From Patescibacteria group bacterium (GTDB lineage Bacteria > Patescibacteriota > Patescibacteriia > UBA9934), in contig JBAZUI010000005.1 in assembly GCA_041661425.1 (NCBI GenBank), positions 1 to 63,967 of the forward strand: DNA of 63,967 bases, in the 5' to 3' direction. The stretch's first letter is position 1. Every line of letters begins with the position of its first letter. Under the pieces are notes generated by a model. The model was given only the letters and a program-made list of their open reading frames with translations. It searched no databases and was not told the origin of the DNA. Below, one piece after another: positions 293-63,675 of this stretch. The translations under genes and the position numbers were made by a program.

Positions 293-471
293 TGATGATG
301 TTTATTTCGTTCAAAATTACTGCATCTACAGGCTCACGATTTGCGTTCCTCGCTCGCCGTACATTTTGGTACGGCTCGCTCCGGTACGCATTGTTCGCCT
401 GTATCTACAGCAATTTTGGACGAAATAGATCCATCGACTGATTTTCTATCAGTGGTTTCTAATAAAATCAG

Positions 472-4518: not shown

Positions 4519-4783
4519 CGAAGGACTTTTGTATTTGAGTGCAGAATGAGAAGAGGCAGAGGCTTTTCGCGAGACGAATACAAAACAAGGAGAAGCTTTA
4601 GATTTAGATGCAGCACGAGGAAAAAACCGAGCAACGAGGAGACGTGTGCAGATTTATTTTCGAAGGACTTTTGTATTTGAGTGCAGAACAAGGAGAAAAC
4701 CGAGTAGCAAGGAGCCGTACATAGATGTACGGTGACGAAGCACGGAGGTTTTCGACAAAGTTATGCGCCAAATACAGAAGTCC
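4519..4783 (+). repeat. Nested/tandem array of family A repeats (two truncated units plus one full unit at 4665-4783)
   Basis: CGAAGGACTTTTGTATTTGAGTGCAGAA occurs at 4519 and 4661 (142-bp period). A left-arm-only copy sits at ~4606-4645. Confidence 0.85.
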
Positions 4784-4794
4784 TTAAATAAAAA

Positions 4795-5613: not shown

Positions 5614-5633
5614 TGGTGGACTTGAGGGGATTC
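5614..5633 (-). repeat. Orphan copy of the tRNA-Ala 3' end (T-loop to CCA)
   Basis: TGGTGGACTTGAGGGGATTC is identical to 5991-6010. Confidence 0.95.
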
Positions 5634-5990
5634 AGCTTCAGCTCTCGGCTTGCCGTCGCAAGCCTCGGCCCTGCCTACCGGCAGGCAGACTAGCCACCCG
5701 CCTTCGCAAGGCTTCGGCGGGCAGGCCGCCTACAATGGCGGAGTTTATCCACCGAAGCTCCGATTTATCCGTCGTAGCTTTAGCGAAGACGGAAGGAGCG
5801 AAGGAGGAGCGTTCGAATCCCTTCGCAAGCCAAATGGTTGACTTGCGTCTAATTTAATCAATAAATTTCCACGTATTTTGCTTCAGATACAAGGCATGGG
5901 TGGCAGTCGAGGAAACGTACCCAAATGTACGTTGACGAAAACTGACGGGACCCATAACACAGTAGCTTAACAAAATTCGTGGAAATTTCT
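5634..5990 (-). mobile_element. Insert between tRNA-Ala and its displaced 3' end: family B element (5634-5847) plus a family-A-like hairpin (5863-5988)
   Basis: The family B sequence is shared with 63358-63550 and 40810-40930. It abuts the tRNA fragment through the ...CCGAGAGCTGAAGC end (minus strand). Confidence 0.7.
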
Positions 5991-6067
5991 TGGTGGACTT
6001 GAGGGGATTCGAACCCCTGACCTCCTGCTTGCAAAGCAGGCGCTCTAACCAGCTGAGCTACAAGCCC
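5991..6067 (-). tRNA. tRNA-Ala (anticodon TGC), CCA encoded
   Basis: Manual fold: acceptor GGGCTTG/CAAGTCC, anticodon arm CCTGC-TTTGCAA-GCAGG, T-arm AGGGG-TTCGAAT-CCCCT. Confidence 0.95.
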
Positions 6068-20789: not shown

Positions 20790-21300
20790 CAAATTCTGAT
20801 CTAGTCATTGCTGCGCCTTACGACACCGCGACTGCAGGCGTCGGGCCATTGGGCCTTCTCGCAATGACGTGGGGGTATCGCGTCAAAACTCACCCTGCCG
20901 TCATTGCGAGCCCGCAGGGCGAAGCAATCCGTTCGAATAGATTGCTTCCCGCCTTCGCTCATTCCGTCTTCGCTAAAGCTACGACGGATAAATCGGAGCT
21001 TCGGACGGGCAGGCGTCGGCCATGAGGCCTTCTCGCAATGACGGCAGAAAGGAAGCTCCGAAGTTATCGTGTTGCTTATGTTGTCATTGCGGGGTGCGGA
21101 TGGGTCTATGCCATCCCTCTGCCATATCGCGAGGAACTTGTGAGAATTCTCGGTGGCGTAGCAACCCATCCCCCTGCCGTCATTGCGAGGAGTGGATGAA
21201 AAATTATTCGGTGACAGAGCGATCCGTGCCCCCTGCCGTCATTGCGAGGAACTGTCTTACATTTTTTGGTGACGAAGCAATCCAGTATTGCCAATGGGTG
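20790..21300. repeat. ~500-bp mosaic of hairpin-forming repeat modules upstream of the FG-GAP gene
   Basis: CGTCATTGCGAG occurs at 20899, 21178 and 21236, with its complement CTCGCAATGACG at 20858 and 21033. GCAGGCGTCGG..GGCCTTCTCGCAATGACG is repeated at 20835 and 21010. A family B/C hairpin module sits at 20964-20992. Confidence 0.8.
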
Positions 21301-21403
21301 TTCTACGTCCCAACGCCGATTCTTTGCTGTGTATAAAGCGAAAAATCTTTGGATTGTCGTGTTATACTTAATCCATCATTTGTCTTATTTGCATTGCAAA
21401 GAA

Positions 21404-22276
21404 ATGAGCAGACCAATTCCTAAATTTAATATCCAAAAAGCATCCATTGCCATGATGTTTGCTTTGTTGTGTTTTATCCCTTTTGCTTTTGCGGCAACAA
21501 CGCACAATCTGTCGCTTTTTGTTGAGTTTACCGGTGAGAGCACAAATAGTAATTATGCGGGGCGGACGGTCGCCCCTGCCGGCGATGTAAACGGTGATGG
21601 TTACAAAGATTTCCTTATTGGAGCGTATGGCAATAATGATGGTGGCGCCAATACAGGTGCGGTGTATCTCATTTACGGTTCAGCAACACCGTTTACCAGC
21701 AGAAACCTTACAAATGACATAAAATTTTGGGGAGAAGCTGTTGGAGATTTGGTCGGCGAAACCTCTATTGCTTCTGCCGGGGACGTGAATGGTGACGGAT
21801 ACGATGATATTCTTATTGGCGCCTATAGAAATGATGATGCCGGAGCAGATGCCGGTGCCGCATATTTGATTTACGGCCAGGCGGCTACGCTTACCAGTGC
21901 TTCGCTTTCAACAGCAATCGAATTTACCGGTGAAGTCGCCGGAGATAAAGCCGGTTATTTCGTTGCCTCAGCAGGGGATGTGAACTTCGATACGTATGAT
22001 GACTTTTTGGTCGGCGCCTATATGAATGACGATGGCCCCGGTGACAATGGCGGTGCCGCCTATCTCATTTACGGTCAGGCTGATCCACTTGTGAGTGCAT
22101 CACTCTCAACCGCCGTGGAGTTTACCGGTGAAGTTGCCGGAGATAACGCTGGTACTAGTGTTTCTTCAGCTGGGGATGTAAATAACGACACATATAGCGA
22201 TATTCTCGTTGGTGCACAATCGAATGACGATGGCCCTGGTGACGATGGCGGCGCGGCTTATCTTATCTATGGCTAG
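21404..22276 (+). CDS. FG-GAP repeat surface protein, N-terminal part (signal peptide plus 4 repeats), ending at an in-frame TAG
   Basis: MSRPIPKFNIQKASIAMMFALLCFIPFAFA signal. Repeats of the form AGDVNGDGYDD..GAAYLIYGQA. The TAG at 22274-22276 replaces the CAG (Q) of the repeat consensus. Confidence 0.8.
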   Translation: MSRPIPKFNIQKASIAMMFALLCFIPFAFAATTHNLSLFVEFTGESTNSNYAGRTVAPAGDVNGDGYKDFLIGAYGNNDGGANTGAVYLIYGSATPFTSRNLTNDIKFWGEAVGDLVGETSIASAGDVNGDGYDDILIGAYRNDDAGADAGAAYLIYGQAATLTSASLSTAIEFTGEVAGDKAGYFVASAGDVNFDTYDDFLVGAYMNDDGPGDNGGAAYLIYGQADPLVSASLSTAVEFTGEVAGDNAGTSVSSAGDVNNDTYSDILVGAQSNDDGPGDDGGAAYLIYG

Positions 22277-22312
22277 GCCGCGCCACTCGTTAGTGCCTCG
22301 CTCTCAACGGCT

Positions 22313-25300
22313 GTGGAATTTACCGGTGAAGTTGCCGGAAACCAGGCCGGGTATTCTGTTTCTTCAGCCGGGGATGTGAATAACGATACTTACGATGACT
22401 TTTTAGTCGGAGCTTTCTTGAATAGTGACGGCGCGAGCATGGCCGGCGCTGTTTATTTAATTTACGGTCAGGCCGCTCCGCTTGTCGCCGCTTCACTTTC
22501 AACTGCGGTGGAGTTTACCGGTGAAGGTGTAATGGACTTTGCAGGCACCAGTGTTTCTTCAGCTGGGGATGTGAATAACGACACATATGATGATTTTCTC
22601 GTTAATGCAGCTTTTAACGATGATGGCCCGGGTAATGATGGAGGAGCGGCTTATCTCATTTACGGTCAGGCCGCGCCACTCGTTAGTGCTTCTCTTTCGA
22701 CCGCAGTTGAGTTCATCGGTGAAGCCGCTATTGATTATGCGGGCTACACGGTTGCCTCGGCCGGGGATGTGAATAACGACACTTATGATGATTTCCTGGT
22801 CGGCGCCTTTATGCATCATGGATATGGTGCCGATTCCGGTTCGGCTTATTTTATTTATGGTCAAGCTAGCGCACTCACGAGCGCGTCACTTTCAACCGCG
22901 GTTAATTTTGGTGGGGAAGCTTATGAGAATACCGCTGTGGCGTCTGATGACTCCGCGGGGAGTGACATTGGCAATGCTGGAGATGTGAACGGCGATGGGT
23001 ATGATGATTTCCTTGTAGTGGCAAATGCGAATGATGACGGTGGCAGCTCATCAGGATCGGCGTATCTTGTGTATGGTCAAGCTTCGCTTCTTGCGGGAAC
23101 ATCATTGTCAAATGCGGTTGAATATATCGGTGAAACGGTGTCGGATATGGTTAATCTTGCGAAAACAGCCGGAGACGTGAATGGTGATGGGTATGATGAT
23201 TTTCTCATCACAGCTTCTTTTAACGATAGCGGTGCTTCAAACGCCGGCGCCGTGTATCTTATTTACGGTCAGGCCGCACCATTGGCTGGTGGATCGCTAT
23301 CAAGTGTGGCAGTGAAATATACTGGGGAAGGTATTAACTACAAAGCCGGTGTCGCTCTTGCATACGGAGATATCAATGGCGATGAATATAGCGATTTTCT
23401 TATTGATGCCGCTTCAAGTAGTGATGGAAAAACCGTTGTTTATCTTGTGTATGGTCAAGCCGCACCATTGGCTGGTGGATCGCTATCAACGGCTGTTGCA
23501 TTAACCGGTGCGCCAGCGGGTGGCTATAATACTCCAGTTTCGGTCGGCGATGTAAACGGAGATGGGTATGATGATATTTTAATCGGAAATTATACTTTAA
23601 ACATTGCCTATCTTCTCTACGGTCAGGCCGCATCATTTGTGAGCGGATCCTATCTCGCATCATCCGTTCAGTTCACACCTGAGGTGAGTGGCGATTTGGC
23701 AGGAATGGACGTTGCGTTGGCGGATATCAACGGCGATGGATATCGCGACATGATTATTTCCGCCACACAAAATGACGATGGCGCAGTGAATGCCGGTGCG
23801 ATTTATCTGATTTATGGACAAGCCGCCGCACTTACAAACGCCTCTCTTTCGACTGCAATAGAATTTATGGGCATAAATGCCACAGCGTCCGGAGCCTCAA
23901 TTGGACTCGCTGATCATTGTGATGTTAATAACGATGGATACGACGATCTTTTTATTGGATTTAAAGATGACAATACCACCTATTACACTCTTGGTCAGGC
24001 AGCTCCCCTTGTTGGTGGATCGCTTTCAACATTCAATACATTCACGGGTGAAGTTGTTGGCGATAGTGCCGGTGATTCTGTCTCTTGTGCCGGTGATGTG
24101 AACGGCGACAATTATAATGAAATAATCATCGGTGCAACAGGAAATGATGATGCTGGATCCGGTGCCGGTGCCGCCTATCTTGGCTATCTCTACGTTGACT
24201 CCGATCACGATGGCATGCCGGGAACAGCCGGCATTCTCGACGGCAATGATTTTGACGATAATGACCCGAGCGTTCAGGATAGTTGGATTTCGAATTTGAG
24301 CGTTGGTGGTTCCTCGGATGGGTGGGGTGGAGTACTCATTCAATTTACCCTCGACGATCCAGACGATGATGATACCGATCAGGCAAGAATTCAATATAGC
24401 CTTGATAACGGCGCAACATGGGCAGATCCAACACTCAGCACATCAGATGCCGATACTACCGCAACCTATGGCGATCCGGATATTAATAATTCCGTTGCGT
24501 ATCAGGTTGGACAATCCGGTGCCTACATTACAACGTCTTCCGGAGCAAATACGATTCAGGTTCGATGGAATTCCGCGGTTGATGTTCCAACAGCGGCAAC
24601 ACAAACCGCAAAAATTCGCGTGACCCCTTATGACGGGACTTCAGAAGGAACCTCAGCAACAAGCTCAGCGTTTTCACTCAATAACCTCGAATCAAATCCC
24701 AGCGATTCCACTCCATCACAACCAAAGGTCACGCCGGAACTGACGGGCCTCGTCATCTCTCAAGGCAATGGCACTACGACCGGTACTCTCACCGAAGGGG
24801 AGTGGACAAGTGTTTCTTGGCTCACACTCGGCTCCGTTCCGTATGTGCTTGTTTCTTATTCAACAGATAATGGATCCACCTGGCAGACGCTTGTTGGTCC
24901 CATCGCAAATCGCAGTAATATCGCCTTTACCATGCCAAGTGATCTGGGTGACACCTTCATGCTCAAGGTTGAAGGAACTGATCTTGCTCTTGTTCTCGAT
25001 ACGCTCACGAGTGATCCAATTATCATCCTCGAACAGACAACCACCCCACCAACATCAACGACTCCGGTCGTAACTCCACCAGCCACGTACGTCCCAGTGG
25101 TTCCGGTTTATGCTCCCTCTCCCATTCTTGGTTACCAGTTCCCAACAACTCCAACGGATACAACATCGGCTACTCAAACTCCCGCAGAAACAGGCGATGA
25201 ACCATCTCCCATCCTTACCTATACCTCTCCCGAGGCCGCATCTCCCGTCACAGGTGAACAGGAAGAGGTGACTGAAGTCTTCCCTGGAGACTATATCAAG

Positions 25301-25684
25301 AGTCCATATTTCCCAACGGTCTATTATGTCACGGAAAACATGGAGCGCCGTCCATTCATGGACGCTCAAACCTACTTTACCTATGAGAGTTCGTTTAATG
25401 CCGTAAAGATCGTTTCTGATGCCACGCTTCCTCTCCTCAATCTTGCCGGTCCCATGCTTCCAAAGCCTTCGACCGTTCTTGTGAAAATCCAGAGTGATCC
25501 AAAGGTCTATCTCGTCTCCACAAATCCCGACAGTGAATATCGCCCCATTCTTCATTGGATCTCGAGCGAGGAATTGGCCGTCAAGATGTACGGCCCTCAA
25601 TGGCCACAATACGTGATTGATATTCCTGTTACTCTATTCGCACGATTTGAGATTGGAGACAAGATTGCCCTGAATCCGAATTGA
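22313..25684 (+). CDS. FG-GAP repeat surface protein, continuation (same frame as 21404-22276; 10 more repeats, T/P-rich linker, C-terminal conserved domain)
   Basis: Frame is continuous from 22277 (AAPLVSASLSTAVEFTGE...). Track ORF start 22313 is a GTG inside the repeat. Confidence 0.85.
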   Translation: MEFTGEVAGNQAGYSVSSAGDVNNDTYDDFLVGAFLNSDGASMAGAVYLIYGQAAPLVAASLSTAVEFTGEGVMDFAGTSVSSAGDVNNDTYDDFLVNAAFNDDGPGNDGGAAYLIYGQAAPLVSASLSTAVEFIGEAAIDYAGYTVASAGDVNNDTYDDFLVGAFMHHGYGADSGSAYFIYGQASALTSASLSTAVNFGGEAYENTAVASDDSAGSDIGNAGDVNGDGYDDFLVVANANDDGGSSSGSAYLVYGQASLLAGTSLSNAVEYIGETVSDMVNLAKTAGDVNGDGYDDFLITASFNDSGASNAGAVYLIYGQAAPLAGGSLSSVAVKYTGEGINYKAGVALAYGDINGDEYSDFLIDAASSSDGKTVVYLVYGQAAPLAGGSLSTAVALTGAPAGGYNTPVSVGDVNGDGYDDILIGNYTLNIAYLLYGQAASFVSGSYLASSVQFTPEVSGDLAGMDVALADINGDGYRDMIISATQNDDGAVNAGAIYLIYGQAAALTNASLSTAIEFMGINATASGASIGLADHCDVNNDGYDDLFIGFKDDNTTYYTLGQAAPLVGGSLSTFNTFTGEVVGDSAGDSVSCAGDVNGDNYNEIIIGATGNDDAGSGAGAAYLGYLYVDSDHDGMPGTAGILDGNDFDDNDPSVQDSWISNLSVGGSSDGWGGVLIQFTLDDPDDDDTDQARIQYSLDNGATWADPTLSTSDADTTATYGDPDINNSVAYQVGQSGAYITTSSGANTIQVRWNSAVDVPTAATQTAKIRVTPYDGTSEGTSATSSAFSLNNLESNPSDSTPSQPKVTPELTGLVISQGNGTTTGTLTEGEWTSVSWLTLGSVPYVLVSYSTDNGSTWQTLVGPIANRSNIAFTMPSDLGDTFMLKVEGTDLALVLDTLTSDPIIILEQTTTPPTSTTPVVTPPATYVPVVPVYAPSPILGYQFPTTPTDTTSATQTPAETGDEPSPILTYTSPEAASPVTGEQEEVTEVFPGDYIKSPYFPTVYYVTENMERRPFMDAQTYFTYESSFNAVKIVSDATLPLLNLAGPMLPKPSTVLVKIQSDPKVYLVSTNPDSEYRPILHWISSEELAVKMYGPQWPQYVIDIPVTLFARFEIGDKIALNPN

Positions 25685-35134: not shown

Positions 35135-35645
35135 GTATTCAGGAAATGCGTAAGCCGAATTCTGTTCCAAATGCCGAAGCATTGGGGCGGTCATCTCTCT
35201 AGGGCGTCTCTTGCGAGACGTCTCATGCGAGCTACCTAATTTGCTCTTGCACCAAGGCAGGTTTGCCACCGCTCCATGTCGCCATGGAGGGAGACTGGTG
35301 GCTCCCGTCAGGGAACCTCCAATCACTTTTCACCTTTTGTTCTACGCAGTGGAACAATCCTGAGTACCGAGCTTGTCGAGGTATCGAAGGGTCACGTTGC
35401 ACCTCTCGACTCGCTTTGCTCGCTCGGGATCGTTTTACTGCGTAAAACTAGTATTGTCTCTGTGGCGCTATCTCTGGGTTTCGGGAAGGGACCGAGGAAC
35501 GGATAAATCCAGTTCCTTGAACTCTTCCTATGTCCCGGTTGCCGTTAGCAACGCCTTTTGATTTTCGATCTTGCGATCGAAAAGGTGTTCGGACTTTCCT
35601 CTTGGGATCCGAAGATTCCAAGTAACCACCACCATTTCCTGAATG
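35135..35645 (-). ncRNA. rnpB: RNase P RNA, bacterial type A, unusually long (~510 nt)
   Basis: On the minus strand: GAGGAAAGTCCGAACAC (P4 5'), GGTGCAAGAGCAAATTAGG, CTAGAGAGATGACCGCCC, and ACAGAATTCGGCTTAC (P4 3'). P1 pairs ATTCAGGAAATG with CATTTCCTGAAT. Confidence 0.9.
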
Positions 35646-38663: not shown

Positions 38664-40457
38664 TTACAGTTCGATCACCACTGGCAAGACCATGGGGCGG
38701 CGTTCTGTTTTTGTGAAGAGGAATTTTCCGACCTCATCGCGAATGGTATTCTTGATGAATTTCGTATCGGCCGCTGATTGAGGGTCCGGATCTTTTCCAG
38801 CGAATTTTTGGACAATTTTTTTCGTGTGCTCTGCGAGTTCGTGATTATCTTTCATCTGCACAAATCCTCGGCTCATAATTTCTGGAGGGCCAATCATGGC
38901 ACCGGTTTTTTTATCGATTTGAACAATGATCACCACAACTCCATCATCAGAAAGTGTTTTGCGATCGCGAAGGACAATTTGGGAGACATCCCCAACACCA
39001 AGCCCATCCACGAAAACATGTTCAGCGGGTACACGCTCTTCTGTCAGTTTTACGATCGAATCGCCCTTGCGGTCTTTTTCCACGGTGACGACTTGGCCAT
39101 TATCGGCGATGATGACATCGGATTCCTTATACCCGAGTGCAAGAGCCACTTCCGCATTTTCTCGAAGAAGAAAGTGGAGTCCTTCAATTGGCATGTAATA
39201 TTTTGGTTTGAGCAGTGTGAGAAGAAGTTTGATATCTTCCTTTTTTGCATGGCCGCCGGCGTGGACATCCATAATTTCTTTTTGGATCACCATGGCGCGC
39301 TTTCGAGAGAAGGTATCCTTGAGGCGTTGCACAGAATTTTCATTTCCGGGAATAATTGAGCTCGAGAAAATAACCGTATCACCTTTTTTGACATGAATGG
39401 AACGGTGCTCATCATTGGCAATACGACTGAGCGCTGCATTTTTTTCACCCTGCGCACCGGTACAAATAATAAGGACCTTATCATCGGGGTAATCTTCAAC
39501 CGCTTCAATCGGGATGAAGATTTTTGGATTCACCTGCATGTGGCTCAATCGGATGGCGATTTCCACATTCGATTTCATAGAAAACCCATCAATCGCGATT
39601 TTGCGTCCAAGGATTTCCGCAATCTGAATCACCTGCGTCACGCGTGAAAGCAAAGAGGAAAATGTTCCAATAATAATGCGACCGCGCGCATTGGCGATAA
39701 TGCTATATAGTTCAGCACCAATAACCTTTTCCGATATTTGGTGCCCGGGCATATTCGAATTCGTTGAATCGCCCATGAGGAGGGTTACTCCTTTTTCGCC
39801 CCAGGAAGCCATTTTGTGGATATCGGTTGTTTTGGTGCCTACCGGATGAAAATCGAATTTCCAATCCCCGGTATGGATAATATTTCCCGCCGGCGTTTCC
39901 ACCACCACCATCGCACAATCCGGAATATTGTGATTGATATGGATGAAGCTCACTTTGAAGACGCCGAGCTGGAGGACAGTGTCGATGGTGAGGTCTTTTA
40001 CGGTGATGTGAGAGTTTCGAAAATCGGTTTGGCGCTTCCGGATGATGCCTGCGGCCATGGGGAGGGCATAGACCGGAGGATTGCCTATTTGCGGGATGGC
40101 ATGAGGAATTCCACCGATGTGATCAAGATGTCCGTGGGTGATAATCACGCCACGCACATTTTTTTCCTTGCCCTTGAGGTAACTCATGTTCGGGATGATG
40201 TAGTCGACCCCCGGCATTTCCTCATCTGGGAATTCGAGTCCCATGTCAATAAGAATGATGTCGTTTTTGTATTCGATGAGTGTACAGTTGCGCCCGACTT
40301 CTTCGAGTCCGCCAAGGACCATGACGCGTACCGCATCGCCTTGGGGCGCGCGGAAGACGTGAAGTCGGTTACGATCGATGGGCGGTCGTCGCATTTGATT
40401 GCGCGGATGAATGCGTCCACGTGATCTTGGACGAAAATTTGGTTTTGGATCTGCCAT
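38664..40457 (-). CDS. rnj: Ribonuclease J (beta-CASP metallo-beta-lactamase)
   Basis: ITHGHLDHIGG motif; size and order of the beta-CASP motifs fit RNase J. Confidence 0.9.
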   Translation of the reverse strand: MADPKPNFRPRSRGRIHPRNQMRRPPIDRNRLHVFRAPQGDAVRVMVLGGLEEVGRNCTLIEYKNDIILIDMGLEFPDEEMPGVDYIIPNMSYLKGKEKNVRGVIITHGHLDHIGGIPHAIPQIGNPPVYALPMAAGIIRKRQTDFRNSHITVKDLTIDTVLQLGVFKVSFIHINHNIPDCAMVVVETPAGNIIHTGDWKFDFHPVGTKTTDIHKMASWGEKGVTLLMGDSTNSNMPGHQISEKVIGAELYSIIANARGRIIIGTFSSLLSRVTQVIQIAEILGRKIAIDGFSMKSNVEIAIRLSHMQVNPKIFIPIEAVEDYPDDKVLIICTGAQGEKNAALSRIANDEHRSIHVKKGDTVIFSSSIIPGNENSVQRLKDTFSRKRAMVIQKEIMDVHAGGHAKKEDIKLLLTLLKPKYYMPIEGLHFLLRENAEVALALGYKESDVIIADNGQVVTVEKDRKGDSIVKLTEERVPAEHVFVDGLGVGDVSQIVLRDRKTLSDDGVVVIIVQIDKKTGAMIGPPEIMSRGFVQMKDNHELAEHTKKIVQKFAGKDPDPQSAADTKFIKNTIRDEVGKFLFTKTERRPMVLPVVIEL

Positions 40458-40577
40458 AAGAATAACATTGGTTCCCGGTTCAATGGCCGGGAAGAATTAA
40501 GAGAAAATTATTTGTCTGTCTTCGACGTGTTCGGAGAAAGACAAATGAGTTTCTCGATGAATTGATTTTTTATTCCT

Positions 40578-40788
40578 GGTGCCGGGCAGGATGGCTGTAT
40601 CATTCTTCGTTCCGACTGACGAGGTAGGCTTGAATGGCCTGTTCGCGTCCTCCTACGCTCCTCAGCATTACCTCGGAGCTTCGGAGGACAGCCGTAGCTT
40701 CAGCCGACAAGCAGGGTGGCTTGCCAGCCGTTTTATCCACCGTAACTCTAGTGAAGGTGGAAGCTTCAGCGATAGCTGAAGCGAAGGC
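40578..40788 (-). repeat. Family C tRNA-trailer element (copy 3), following the displaced tRNA-Leu 3' fragment
   Basis: Minus strand begins GCCTTCGCTTCAGCTATCGCTGAAGCTTCCACCTTCACTAGAGTTACGGTGGATAAAACGG..., near-identical to 51257-51470. Confidence 0.85.
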
Positions 40789-40809
40789 TGGTGGGCGGAG
40801 AGGGACTCG
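40789..40809 (-). repeat. Orphan copy of the tRNA-Leu(CAG) 3' end (T-loop to CCA)
   Basis: TGGTGGGCGGAGAGGGACTCG is identical to 40936-40956. Confidence 0.95.
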
Positions 40810-40935
40810 GCCTCGACTCTCGGCTTGCCGTCGCAAGCCTCGGTCTGGCCACCGCCTCGCCATTCTGCCTGCTGGCAGAATATGGCTCCGGCGTTCGAGT
40901 CCATTAACAAGCCAAATGGTTGGCTTGTCGACCCT
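40810..40935 (-). mobile_element. Short family B element inserted between tRNA-Leu(CAG) and its displaced 3' end
   Basis: Shares CTCGGCTTGCCGTCGCAAGCCTCGG and GTTCGAGTCC..ACAAGCCAAATGGTTGGCTTGT with the B copies at 5634 and 63358. Confidence 0.7.
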
Positions 40936-41021
40936 TGGTGGGCGGAGAGGGACTCGAACCCTCAAGAGATTACTCTCACAAGCTTCTGAAACTTGCGTGT
41001 CTACCGTTTCACCATCCGCCC
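40936..41021 (-). tRNA. tRNA-Leu (anticodon CAG), long variable arm, CCA encoded
   Basis: Manual fold: acceptor GGGCGGA.., anticodon arm CAAGT-TTCAGAA-GCTTG, T-arm GAGGG-TTCGAGT-CCCTC. Confidence 0.9.
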
Positions 41022-50125: not shown

Positions 50126-50202
50126 GGGTCTGTAGCTCAGTTGGTTAGAGCGCCGAGCTTATACCTCGGTGGTCGATGGTTCGAGTCCATCCAGACCCAC
50201 CA
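50126..50202 (+). tRNA. tRNA-Ile (anticodon TAT), CCA encoded
   Basis: Manual fold: acceptor GGGTCTG/CAGACCC, anticodon arm CCGAG-CTTATAC-CTCGG, T-arm GATGG-TTCGAGT-CCATC. The body resembles bacterial tRNA-Ile. Confidence 0.85.
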
Positions 50203-50365
50203 GCCTTCGCTTCAGCTATCGCTGAAGCTACGGCTGGCAGGCCATCCTGCCTTCCACCTTCACTAAAGTTACGGTGGATAAAACGGCTGGCAGGCCACCC
50301 TGTCAGCTGAAGCGAAGGCTGTCCTCCGAAGCTCCGAGGCAATGCCGAGGAGCGTAGGAGGACAT
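50203..50365 (+). repeat. Family C tRNA-trailer element (copy 1), starting at the nucleotide after CCA
   Basis: GCCTTCGCTTCAGCTATCGCTGAAGC...CCACCTTCACTAAAGTTACGGTGGATAAAACGG...GCTGAAGCGAAGGCTGTCCTCCGAAGCTCCGAGGC...GGAGGAC. Confidence 0.85.
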
Positions 50366-50416
50366 GAACTGAATTAGTTATTGCCGAAGTTTCCGCTTTT
50401 CATCGATACCGCTTCT

Positions 50417-51046: not shown

Positions 51047-51170
51047 GAGAACTTTTCCTTTTGGATGCAGAACAAGGAAGAACCAAGGCTTTTTGTGAGA
51101 CGTACCCAAATGTACGTTGAACAAAAAACGAAGGTTCTGACGAAGCTATGCGCCAAAAGGAGAAGTTCTC
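51047..51170 (+). repeat. Family A structured repeat (variant core), between the membrane-protein gene and tRNA-Val
   Basis: Outer arms GAGAACTTTTCCTTTTGG / CCAAAAGGAGAAGTTCTC. Core GATGCAGAACAAGG...ACGTACCCAAATGTACGT...GACGAAGCTATGCGCC. Confidence 0.8.
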
Positions 51171-51256: not shown

Positions 51257-51490
51257 GCCTTCGCTTCAGCTATCGCTGAAGCTTCCACCTTCACTAGAGT
51301 TACGGTGGATAAAACGGCTGGCAAGCCATCCTGCTTGTCGGCTGAAGCGAAGGCTGTCCTCCGAAGCTCCGAGGCAACGCCGAGGAGCGTAGGAGGACGC
51401 GAATAGGCCATCAAGTCTGCCATCTCGTCAGTCGGAACGAAGGATGCCCTCCGAAGCCCCGTTTACAGCGGGGCGAAGGAGGGCAGGATT
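51257..51490 (+). repeat. Family C tRNA-trailer element (copy 2), starting at the nucleotide after CCA
   Basis: Same sequence family as 50203-50365 and 40578-40788, with an extended 3' part (CTCGTCAGTCGGAACGAAGGATG...). Confidence 0.85.
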
Positions 51491-51526
51491 TCATGAAAAC
51501 TTTCTGTTAACGAAGACTATTCGGAT

Positions 51527-51769
51527 ATGTTTTTTGTGTATATTATTCAAAGCATGATTGACCGAGATCAATTTTATACTGGTTTTACTGATGACATTGA
51601 AAATCGAATAACGAAACATAATAAAGGTGACTCGTTTCATACAAAAAAATACAGGCCATGGAAATTACTTTTCTATAGTGCTTTTGAAGAAAAGAAAAAG
51701 GCTCTTTGTTTCGAAAAGTATCTAAAAACAGGATCAGGTATAGCTTATAAGAGAAAACATTTCATCTAG
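51527..51769 (+). CDS. Stand-alone GIY-YIG nuclease-domain protein
   Basis: FVYIIQS..QFYTGFT (GIY..YIG), R..KHN, and an 80-aa size typical of the UPF0213-type. Confidence 0.75.
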   Translation: MFFVYIIQSMIDRDQFYTGFTDDIENRITKHNKGDSFHTKKYRPWKLLFYSAFEEKKKALCFEKYLKTGSGIAYKRKHFI

Positions 51770-63166: not shown

Positions 63167-63336
63167 CCGCCTGCACAAGGGCGGAGTTTATCCACCGAAG
63201 CTCCGATTTATCCGTCGTAGCTTTAGTGAAGACGGAAGGAGCGAAGGAGGAGCGTTCGAATCCCACGCAAGCCAAATTGTTGGCTTGCTATGAAATACCA
63301 ACCCACAAGGTTCCAATGATTTGAAACATTCTGGGT
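63167..63336 (-). mobile_element. Older, 5'-truncated tandem copy of the family B element plus spacer
   Basis: Near-identical to 63429-63598 (262-bp period). Confidence 0.75.
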
Positions 63337-63357
63337 TGGTGGACGCCAAGGGATTCG
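63337..63357 (-). repeat. Orphan copy of the tRNA-Val(TAC) 3' end (T-loop to CCA)
   Basis: TGGTGGACGCCAAGGGATTCG is identical to 63599-63619. Confidence 0.95.
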
Positions 63358-63598
63358 GCTTCAGCTCTCGGCTTGCCGTCGCAAGCCTCGGCTTAGCCAC
63401 CCGCCTTCGCAAGGCTTCGGCGGGCAGGCCGCCTGCACAAGGGCGGAGTTTATCCACCGAAGCTCCGATTTATCCGTCGTAGCTTTAGCGAAGACGGAAG
63501 GAGCGAAGGAGGAGCGTTCGAATCCCACGCAAGCCAAATTGTTGGCTTGCTATGAAATACCAACCCACAAAGTTCCAATGATTTGAAACATTCTGGGT
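63358..63598 (-). mobile_element. Family B element (63358-63550) plus spacer, inserted between tRNA-Val(TAC) and its displaced 3' end
   Basis: Shares almost its whole length with 5634-5847. Confidence 0.75.
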
Positions 63599-63675
63599 TG
63601 GTGGACGCCAAGGGATTCGAACCCCTGACCTTCTCGGTGTAAACGAGACGCTCTAACCAGCTGAGCTAGGCGTCC
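63599..63675 (-). tRNA. tRNA-Val (anticodon TAC), CCA encoded
   Basis: Manual fold: acceptor GGACGCC/GGCGTCC, anticodon arm TCTCG-TTTACAC-CGAGA, T-arm AGGGG-TTCGAAT-CCCTT. Confidence 0.93.

Follow-up and report, generated by a model that had tools for sequence, protein, structure and literature searches.

We analysed a 63,967-nt stretch of a Patescibacteria group bacterium (contig JBAZUI010000005.1), here called the window or 64-kb window, which contains a short non-coding insert, element B, 3′ of a tRNA-Leu(CAG) gene. The Patescibacteria, or Candidate Phyla Radiation (CPR), account for a large part of the diversity of bacteria, and their genomes are tiny. The tRNA-Leu(CAG) gene, at 40936-41021 of the minus strand, is intact and encodes its CCA end (ARAGORN; Rfam tRNA model, 55.1 bits). 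In the direction of the gene, it is followed by the 126-nt B insert, by a 21-nt copy of the tRNA 3′ end, referred to as the orphan, and by a copy of a second repeat, family C. An earlier, sequence-only reading of the window had proposed this layout, and its coordinates for all four parts hold. The features of the locus are as follows:

40810-40935, minus strand: B element, canonical form, 126 nt; match to covariance model CM R1 at 40797-40927, 133.7 bits, E 1e-32
40928-40934, minus strand: GGGUCGA, a segment resembling an acceptor 5′ strand; in the minimum free energy (MFE) fold, its GGGU is paired to the orphan's GCCC
40907-40928, minus strand: hp1, a variable hairpin (ACAAGCC...GGCTTGT) with compensatory changes at 6/6 pairs across 49 copies
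40893-40902, minus strand: anti-T segment GGACUCGAAC, exact reverse complement of tRNA positions 53-62 (GUUCGAGUCC)
40852-40892, minus strand: K-turn-like arm, with the internal loop GCC-GGA-GCC / GGC-GA-GGC and hairpin hp2 (loop AGCA)
40809-40851, minus strand: hp3 arm, as defined by the alignment fold and pair counts
40789-40809, minus strand: orphan, a 21/21 copy of tRNA-Leu C56-A76, cgagtccctctccgcccacca; exact repeat family D18
40578-40788, minus strand: family C copy, abutting the CCA of the orphan

The insert has the 5′ hairpin ACAAGCCAACCATTTGGCTTGT at 40928-40907 and ends in ...GGCTTGCGACGGCAAGCCGAGAGTCGAGGC. An exact 21-nt repeat at a distance of 147 nt has a probability of about 4^-21 per position pair, and the orphan is thus not a product of chance. 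The anti-T segment was also compared with the T-arm as a direct copy; at the Leu locus this gives a match at 6/10 positions, versus 10/10 as a reverse complement. The hp3 arm is composed of a closing helix GGCC/GGCC, a helix of 4 bp from which an A bulges, a tandem G·A motif, and the hairpin GGCUUGC-GACG-GCAAGCC followed by GAGAG; the window Leu copy has UU/AA in place of the tandem GA/AG of the family. Other identities were considered and rejected: ARAGORN found no tmRNA or permuted tmRNA at the locus, and for signal recognition particle RNA, 6S RNA and T-box there was neither an Rfam signal nor a motif match by eye.

Insertion and fold

Related genomes show the same site without the insert. 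The tRNA-Leu(CAG) gene lies upstream of the RNase J gene (rnj) in 47 of 72 related loci, mostly from Uhrbacteria, and neither B nor orphan nor family C is present in any of these 47; a covariance-model search over 594 kb of RNase J-related loci likewise gave no match. The closest relative, L086, whose RNase J is 83% identical, has the same tRNA-Leu 3′ end with the rnj leader directly behind it; this leader aligns with positions 40457-40577 of the window. The genome of this relative carries B at tRNA-Tyr and tRNA-Asp instead (L002 and L013), and the 52-nt hp2 arm of the Asp copy is 100% identical to that of the window Leu copy. For the RNase J protein of the window itself no exact record was found, and the best listed homologue is 68% identical. 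The proposal that B is an insertion tied to the T-loop, leaving an intact tRNA and a displaced or duplicated 3′ end, is therefore borne out by an empty site in L086 and 47 relatives, as well as by the recurrence of this layout at dozens of Patescibacteria tRNAs (see below). Judged by sequence comparison, B displays the presence/absence polymorphism, multiple copies and different sites in relatives that characterize mobile elements in general.

The structure of B was derived with RNAalifold and explicit pair counts on an alignment of 49 copies. The fold is a three-way junction with two arms, one a K-turn-like hairpin and the other an irregular, G·A-rich hairpin. The junction is closed by the anti-T segment paired with the first 6-7 nt of the orphan, and this closing helix covaries (column 34/134: AU 16, UA 16, CG 10). 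The 3x2 internal loop of the K-turn-like arm reads GGA/GA in 43/49 copies, and hp2 covaries at every pair. The hp3 arm forms a long hairpin of irregular build, in which one A is bulged and tandem G·A motifs occur twice. With the predicted partners, 88.5% of cells are paired, versus 29-41% with slid partners, and the covariation score is 0.488 versus less than 0.1. Compensatory changes occur at 30 of 38 pairs, and the observed values were reached in 0/500 shuffles. Among the non-Watson-Crick combinations, G·U (72) is far more frequent than A·C (28), which indicates that the structure is selected on the tRNA-sense strand and is RNA-like; G·A was counted 92 times. The window Leu copy alone adopts the same fold as the family model (MFE -78.2 kcal/mol, z = -6.0). 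By its compensatory changes and strand-specific tolerance of G·U, B qualifies as a new conserved structured RNA family, and according to this model its conserved part is a single strand that folds, in all probability RNA, and is read in the direction of the tRNA.

These results alter the view of what delimits the element. The sequence-only reading had taken the Leu copy for the smallest version of B, marking its functional ends. This copy, which is one of the 49 used to build CM R1, scores 133.7 bits against it, compared with 44-54 bits for the expanded copies at tRNA-Ala and tRNA-Val (see below), and thus represents the canonical form of the family. The GCAAGCC/GGCTTGC palindromes had been considered as the termini of B, possibly of the kind used by a transposase or recombinase. 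They are in fact two different structural hairpins, covarying as RNA helices do (G·U well above A·C). The first, hp1, is variable across the family; the second, GGCUUGC...GCAAGCC, reads GGCGAGC-GACG-GCGAGCC in most copies, with tandem G·A replacing U-A pairs. The ends of the element are set by the helix of T-loop complement and orphan. In some loci the matching of B to its tRNA extends further, as a stretch of 7-10 nt located 5′ of hp1 forms the complement of the acceptor 3′ strand plus discriminator (L003, L004, L029, L040, L078 and L084). Separately, in one subfamily a leader motif, (U)GAACGAAGUGA(A/G), is conserved between the tRNA end and the acceptor-complement segment (L012, L015, L040, L043, L057, L065, L071 and L084).

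Distribution of B and origin of its arms

The 23-mer GGCTTGCGACGGCAAGCCGAGAG is present in 5 metagenome-assembled genomes (MAGs) of Patescibacteria, and the relaxed motif AGGCNNNCGACGGNNNGCCGAGAG retrieved 83 genome loci. About 58 of these 83 are from Patescibacteria, namely Saccharibacteria, Kaiser- and Yanofskybacteria, Paceibacterota, Minisyncoccia and Parcubacteria, and have the whole core in common; the approximately 25 matches from outside the CPR have neither the core nor a tRNA nearby. In about 60 CPR loci, B is located 0-150 nt 3′ of a tRNA or tmRNA gene, and its core is found 70-140 nt 3′ of tRNAs of at least 13 amino-acid types, namely Arg, Tyr, Ser, Pro, Leu, Asp, Val, Ile, Ala, Gly, Met, Lys and Glu. 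In addition, at L081 (2495-3023, minus strand) it is a tmRNA gene behind which B is found, together with an orphan of 19 nt. This location implies that the target is the T-arm/acceptor module, not tRNAs as such. The covariance model built from the 49 copies yielded 86 matches in 84 loci. In 60 CPR loci, 80 of 135 tRNA/tmRNA genes have a model match within 350 nt, a count in which the tRNAs that led to the loci are included; at L003 the figure is 4/5 tRNAs.

An exact 18-22 nt copy of the 3′ end of the local tRNA follows the core in about 35 loci. The orphan copy begins at C56 or G57, the upstream copy runs to the end of the tRNA, and across loci the orphans grade from perfect to decayed. The two copies of the 3′ end are 117-394 nt apart in all loci; that is, no cargo is seen among about 60 loci. 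Tandem or truncated units occur at the window tRNA-Val copy, L075, L077 and L082.

A minority subfamily (L001, L005, L027, L033 and L076) has no orphan. Its closing helix is GGUCGC/GUGACC, and an additional outer stem, overlapping with the tRNA 3′ end, lengthens its hp1; these elements are not followed by a copy of the tRNA. One member, L005, is located after rpsI, with no tRNA nearby. It had been suggested that B would be an ordinary spacer if relatives carried it without any flanking tRNA duplication. Such copies do exist, but they are confined to this subfamily, and most copies are associated with the duplication.

In metagenome contigs the exact motif had 2 matches, one of them on the same contig as L002. 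In the viral contigs of IMG/VR, the window motif had 0 matches and the relaxed motif 3, all of them due to chance, with one inside an open reading frame (ORF) and none near a tRNA. Compared with Rfam 15, at the gathering threshold and at E <= 10, the window copy and the L040 copy matched no family other than tRNA. No description of the B family was found in the literature, of which our coverage is incomplete, so that an earlier description is possible. Thus, the B family is widespread in Patescibacteria and apparently undescribed.

The origin of the target-matched arms becomes apparent when similar cores at different tRNAs are compared. Core identity is 96% between L043 (Pro, Saccharibacteria) and L012 (Arg, Kaiserbacteria), 96% between L030 (Met) and L050 (Ser), 94% between L073 (Ala) and L043 (Pro), and 91% between the window Leu copy and L013 (Asp). 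In the first three of these pairs, the near-identical cores at different tRNA species span approximately 93 nt, including the fast-evolving hp2 stem; identity begins at GGAATCGAAC and stops at the last base of the core. The T-stem complement just 5′ of this region and the orphan match the local tRNA in each case, from which we conclude that the arms are written from the target. Consistent with local matching, the closing helix extends by 1.71 bp with its own partner, versus 1.00 +/- 0.13 bp with shuffled partners. The resident 3′ ends pair perfectly with the 5′ strands of their own tRNAs in all cases. An orphan that paired better than the resident end, i.e., one indicating that a foreign end had been carried in, was never seen; orphans pair equally well or worse.

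These observations bear upon a miniature integrative element, flanked by attachment (att) sites in the manner of a cis-mobilizable element (CIME), or an island remnant, for which a tyrosine integrase would cross over in the T-loop. In this scenario, the attP of the element would include the tRNA 3′ end, the chromosomal end would have been displaced to become the orphan, and a folded single strand might serve as attP, as it does in CTX-phi. The layout of B is that of attL/attR at T-loop-class sites, and the islands and prophages of P4-type tyrosine integrases, as well as CIMEs, share with B the association with the T-loop, the direct repeat from T-loop to 3′ end (21/21 at Leu; 18-22 nt in about 35 loci), an intact tRNA, the use of tmRNA as a target, and tandem accretion. 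The boundary of the repeat follows the encoded CCA, and a duplex mimicking the target could be formed between the left arm and the orphan. B differs from these elements, however, in that it is 100-170 nt long, has no ORF or cargo, and features a conserved RNA-type fold and an inverted copy of the target. No integrase gene was found in the 126-nt element or in the 64-kb window, no cargo in about 60 loci, and no genuine match in viral contigs. A carried tRNA 3′ end (attP x attB) would give rise to hybrid, non-functional tRNAs upon jumps such as those implied by the near-identical cores at Pro/Arg, Met/Ser and Ala/Pro, whereas all residents are intact and pair perfectly. Because the arms are target-specific even between near-identical elements, the 3′ end appears not to be carried or shared, unlike in integrase islands; the data fit a target-duplicating process. 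Moreover, K-turn-like and tandem G·A motifs and an excess of G·U over A·C are not expected of double-stranded attP arms. We therefore consider an att-type element quite unlikely.

The same data can be set against a role of B in the host, as a non-coding RNA (ncRNA) module of the tRNA transcription unit that is kept matched to its tRNA by selection and spreads by duplication and gene conversion instead of transposition. Such a module could be a tRNA-like minihelix with a processing site for RNase P or the CCA enzyme, or else it could serve the 3′ half of the tRNA as a chaperone or decoy. Conservation at the RNA level, with the orphan as an integral strand of the fold, is in line with this idea, as are the large share of tRNAs occupied in carrier genomes, the full acceptor-like stem of some copies (L003, L040), and the orphan-less copies located after tRNAs or rpsI. 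It does not readily account for the absence of B at tRNA-Leu(CAG) in 47 relatives and its presence at other tRNAs in the closest one, nor for tandem and truncated copies, the many decayed orphans, and near-identical cores across distant classes. A host module is thus unlikely in our assessment.

Proposed mechanism and known systems

The explanation that we favor, as the probable though by no means certain one, is that B is a non-autonomous mobile element, structured at the RNA level, which targets the T-loops of tRNA and tmRNA genes and duplicates the 3′ end of its target. Non-autonomy follows from its length, as 126 nt are too short for any ORF. Insertion would take place at or around the center of the T-loop, TTC|GAA. 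On its left side the duplicate has a fixed boundary, at this center (C56/G57), while the right boundary usually falls at position 74-76 and is sometimes 28-96 nt away; the duplicate stops at the CCA in genes that encode it, and near position 74 in others. This boundary pattern resembles that of a staggered or target-primed insertion. In such a process the first, specific break would be made in the T-loop and the second usually 18-22 nt downstream, and fill-in would follow. The helix of anti-T segment and orphan would be an RNA image of the target duplex, through which T-loops are selected, and mobilization would require a trans-acting enzyme encoded elsewhere. For this enzyme, a reverse transcriptase, engaged in target-primed copying of a read-through transcript, is judged slightly likelier than a recombinase or nuclease. 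As to the spacer, the notion that it repeats, in inverted form, what follows the orphan was rejected; it fits L074 alone, and about 10 loci show a direct extension.

A bolder form of this hypothesis, possible but in our opinion doubtful, is that B is an ncRNA of approximately 100 nt that homes to any tRNA or tmRNA T-loop by means of a built-in copy of the target duplex, with both guide strands rewritten for each target. It would be moved by an enzyme of the host or of an element, or by its own catalysis, would be transferred horizontally between classes of Patescibacteria, and would occupy a large share of tRNA genes.

Several points weigh against a mobile element of the kind we favor. No mobilizing enzyme was found, and no cargo-bearing or autonomous relative was seen in about 60 loci. 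The acceptor-strand complements upstream of hp1 in some loci would not be produced by a simple staggered cut. The spacer hairpins differ between near-identical cores, and such locus-specific spacers are not explained by the insertion model; this difference implies that gene conversion between resident elements, limited to the core, could explain part of the core similarity. The fact that the end of the duplicate tracks the CCA or position 74 also fits an att-type identity block. The loci were retrieved with a motif, so that the apparent conservation of hp3 is biased. Lastly, the folded strand may be RNA or single-stranded DNA.

The likeness of B to other short repeats is partial. MITEs (transposable elements of the miniature inverted-repeat type), REP/BIME, RPE and Correia elements, and the PATEs of IS200/IS605 are, like B, short, non-coding, multi-copy, rich in hairpins and presumably served in trans. 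B differs from MITEs in having no fixed terminal inverted repeats, its sole inverted repeat being the target-derived pair of anti-T segment and orphan, and in a duplication of 18-22 nt, sometimes 28-96 nt, as opposed to 2-9 bp. It is also found strictly at tRNA 3′ ends, in one orientation, and is conserved as a folded single strand.

Among retroelements, the exon- and intron-binding sites (EBS/IBS) of group II introns, the primer-binding site of long terminal repeat (LTR) elements, and the target-primed insertion of short and long interspersed elements (SINEs and LINEs) provide parallels, in that B likewise contains an internal complement, to about 10-20 nt of the tRNA 3′ region. The duplication is fixed on the left and variable on the right, which is also the pattern of target-primed reverse transcription, and B is non-autonomous like SINEs. 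On the other hand, B has no intron domains, no poly(A) and no LTR, and its complement lies on the T-loop and T-stem, not on the last 18 nt. Neither an ORF nor an Rfam intron match was found for B, and no reverse transcriptase was found in the window. Target- or tRNA-pairing retroelements of this form are not known from bacteria.

A related possibility is a ribozyme or intron-like nature of B, as an element of the T-loop which cleaves or ligates at the junction of core and orphan with the anti-T segment as its internal guide, and whose DNA copies arise by reverse splicing and reverse transcription. A guide-like segment does pair across this junction, and there are invariant unpaired bases, namely GAAC (J1), GG(U/G) (J2) and the GGA/GA loop. 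Nevertheless, the upstream tRNA is already complete, so that splicing is unneeded, and no Rfam ribozyme or intron was matched even at E <= 10. In addition, no self-splicing intron as small as the core of approximately 95 nt is known. We regard this possibility as very improbable.

With the bridge or seek RNA of IS110 and the omega RNA or reRNA of IS200/IS605, B has in common that it is a structured ncRNA of similar size with target-matching segments. B lacks an adjacent recombinase or TnpB, however, and those systems do not duplicate about 20 nt of target; furthermore, an orphan acting as a guide would also match the resident tRNA gene. Finally, some B copies stack an acceptor-like on a T-stem-like helix and end at the 3′ terminus of the tRNA itself, as do the tRNA-like domain of tmRNA, mascRNA and the tRNA-like structures of viruses. 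B is distinguished from these by two conserved arms in place of the T-loop and by mimicking whichever tRNA is upstream, and acceptor pairing is no more than vestigial in the window copy. That the pattern is due to chance or to an artefact of assembly is refuted by the finding of the same architecture in about 60 independent assemblies and by the strong covariation.

If B is a mobile element as proposed, it shows how a parasite can use the T-loop, the most conserved site in biology, without killing the target gene. If it is in addition guided or templated by RNA, it would constitute a natural and minimal system for inserting sequence at tRNA genes in a site-specific manner. A non-coding element at many CPR tRNA loci would be a major overlooked feature of these genomes, as well as a new conserved RNA fold. 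In practical terms, orphans and tandem units will mislead tRNA annotation, the prediction of island or prophage att sites, and MAG assembly in these lineages.

Other B copies, repeats and genes of the window

Two further B loci had been proposed within the window, and both are real; they are located behind tRNA-Ala(TGC) and tRNA-Val(TAC):

5991-6067, minus strand: tRNA-Ala(TGC)
5634-5845, minus strand: B, long variant, 3′ of tRNA-Ala(TGC); model match at 5622-5743, 44.1 bits
5614-5633, minus strand: orphan of tRNA-Ala, G57-A76, 20/20
63599-63675, minus strand: tRNA-Val(TAC)
63358-63550, minus strand: B, long variant, 3′ of tRNA-Val(TAC); model match at 63345-63461, 53.6 bits
63337-63357, minus strand: orphan of tRNA-Val(TAC), 21/21; exact repeat family D18
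63167-63336, minus strand: second tandem unit, 3′-truncated (spacer and start of B), 99% identical to 63429-63598; repeat D5

The Ala and Val copies keep the 5′ part of B (hp1 and anti-T segment) and its 3′ part (hp3 arm). In both, as well as in the copy of L002 (7056-7240, minus strand), the K-turn/hp2 arm is swapped for approximately 110 nt of GC-rich hairpin modules (CUUCGCUAAAGCUACGACGGAUAAAUCGG, GGUGGAUAAACUCCGCC), which are related to modules of family C and to positions 20961-21012. The long variant is thus common to the window and its closest relative, where it resides at another tRNA (Tyr). Elsewhere in the window, 348-384 (minus strand) gives a weak match of a K-turn hairpin to the B model.

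Besides the copy at the Leu locus, family C has two copies in the window:

50203-50370, plus strand: family C copy, directly after the CCA of tRNA-Ile(TAT)
51257-51500, plus strand: family C copy, directly after the CCA of tRNA-Val(GAC)

The claim that family C adjoins the CCA at these two tRNAs is thus correct, and every copy begins exactly 3′ of a tRNA or orphan end of the form ...CCCACCA. The three copies are 90-93% identical (Leu versus Val(GAC), 93% over 187 nt), and the Ile copy contains a 14-bp long-range inverted repeat, GCCTTCGCTTCAGC...GCTGAAGCGAAGGC. Family C was found in 0/157 fetched loci, including the 47 orthologous tRNA-Leu(CAG) loci. It looks like a second, genome-specific element targeting tRNA 3′ ends. 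The sequence-only reading had placed it in the ancestral layout, as tRNA-CCA-family C, and had suggested looking in related genomes for tRNA-Leu(CAG) directly followed by family C. This arrangement occurs in 0/47 relatives. From the comparison of these loci, the ancestral layout is tRNA-CCA-rnj leader, which makes family C a second insertion; B and C are separate insertions, and either order fits.

A further repeat family, formed by GAGCCGTAC...GTACGGTGACGA hairpins (D10-D14, D17), occurs at 470-600, 4520-4790, 5912-5941 and 51048-51126. These sites lie close to the 23S-5S spacer, on the upstream side of tRNA-Val(GAC), and within the spacer at the B locus of tRNA-Ala.

The genes of the window are of the housekeeping type, and include aminoacyl-tRNA synthetases, RNase J, UvrA, RuvA, a protein of the CCA/poly(A)-polymerase family and glycosyltransferases; a search of the 64 kb revealed no integrase, reverse transcriptase or transposase. 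A stand-alone ORF of 80 amino acids with a GIY-YIG nuclease domain (51527-51769, plus strand) is located directly 3′ of tRNA-Val(GAC) and its family C copy. It was considered as a B-linked gene and rejected, since its homologues are not tied to B loci (tblastn, 2 weak matches in 160 loci). The RNase P RNA (35135-35642, minus strand) is of class A (156.9 bits) and measures 508 nt, compared with 367 nt for the model, with insertions of about 55 nt and about 90 nt in peripheral helices; the larger insert includes GAGCGAGCAAAGCGAGUCGAGAGG, whose likeness to hp3 of B is superficial only. A large gene at 21242-25684 (plus strand) comprises approximately 13 tandem 198-nt repeats of the GDVNGDGYDD type, resembling FG-GAP/VCBS. 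A TAG at 22274-22276, a position at which CAG stands in the other repeat units, divides the gene into two ORFs, and it is either a pseudogene or subject to read-through. Lastly, the tRNA-Ile at 50126-50202 (plus strand) has a genomically encoded TAT anticodon, which is unusual for bacteria.

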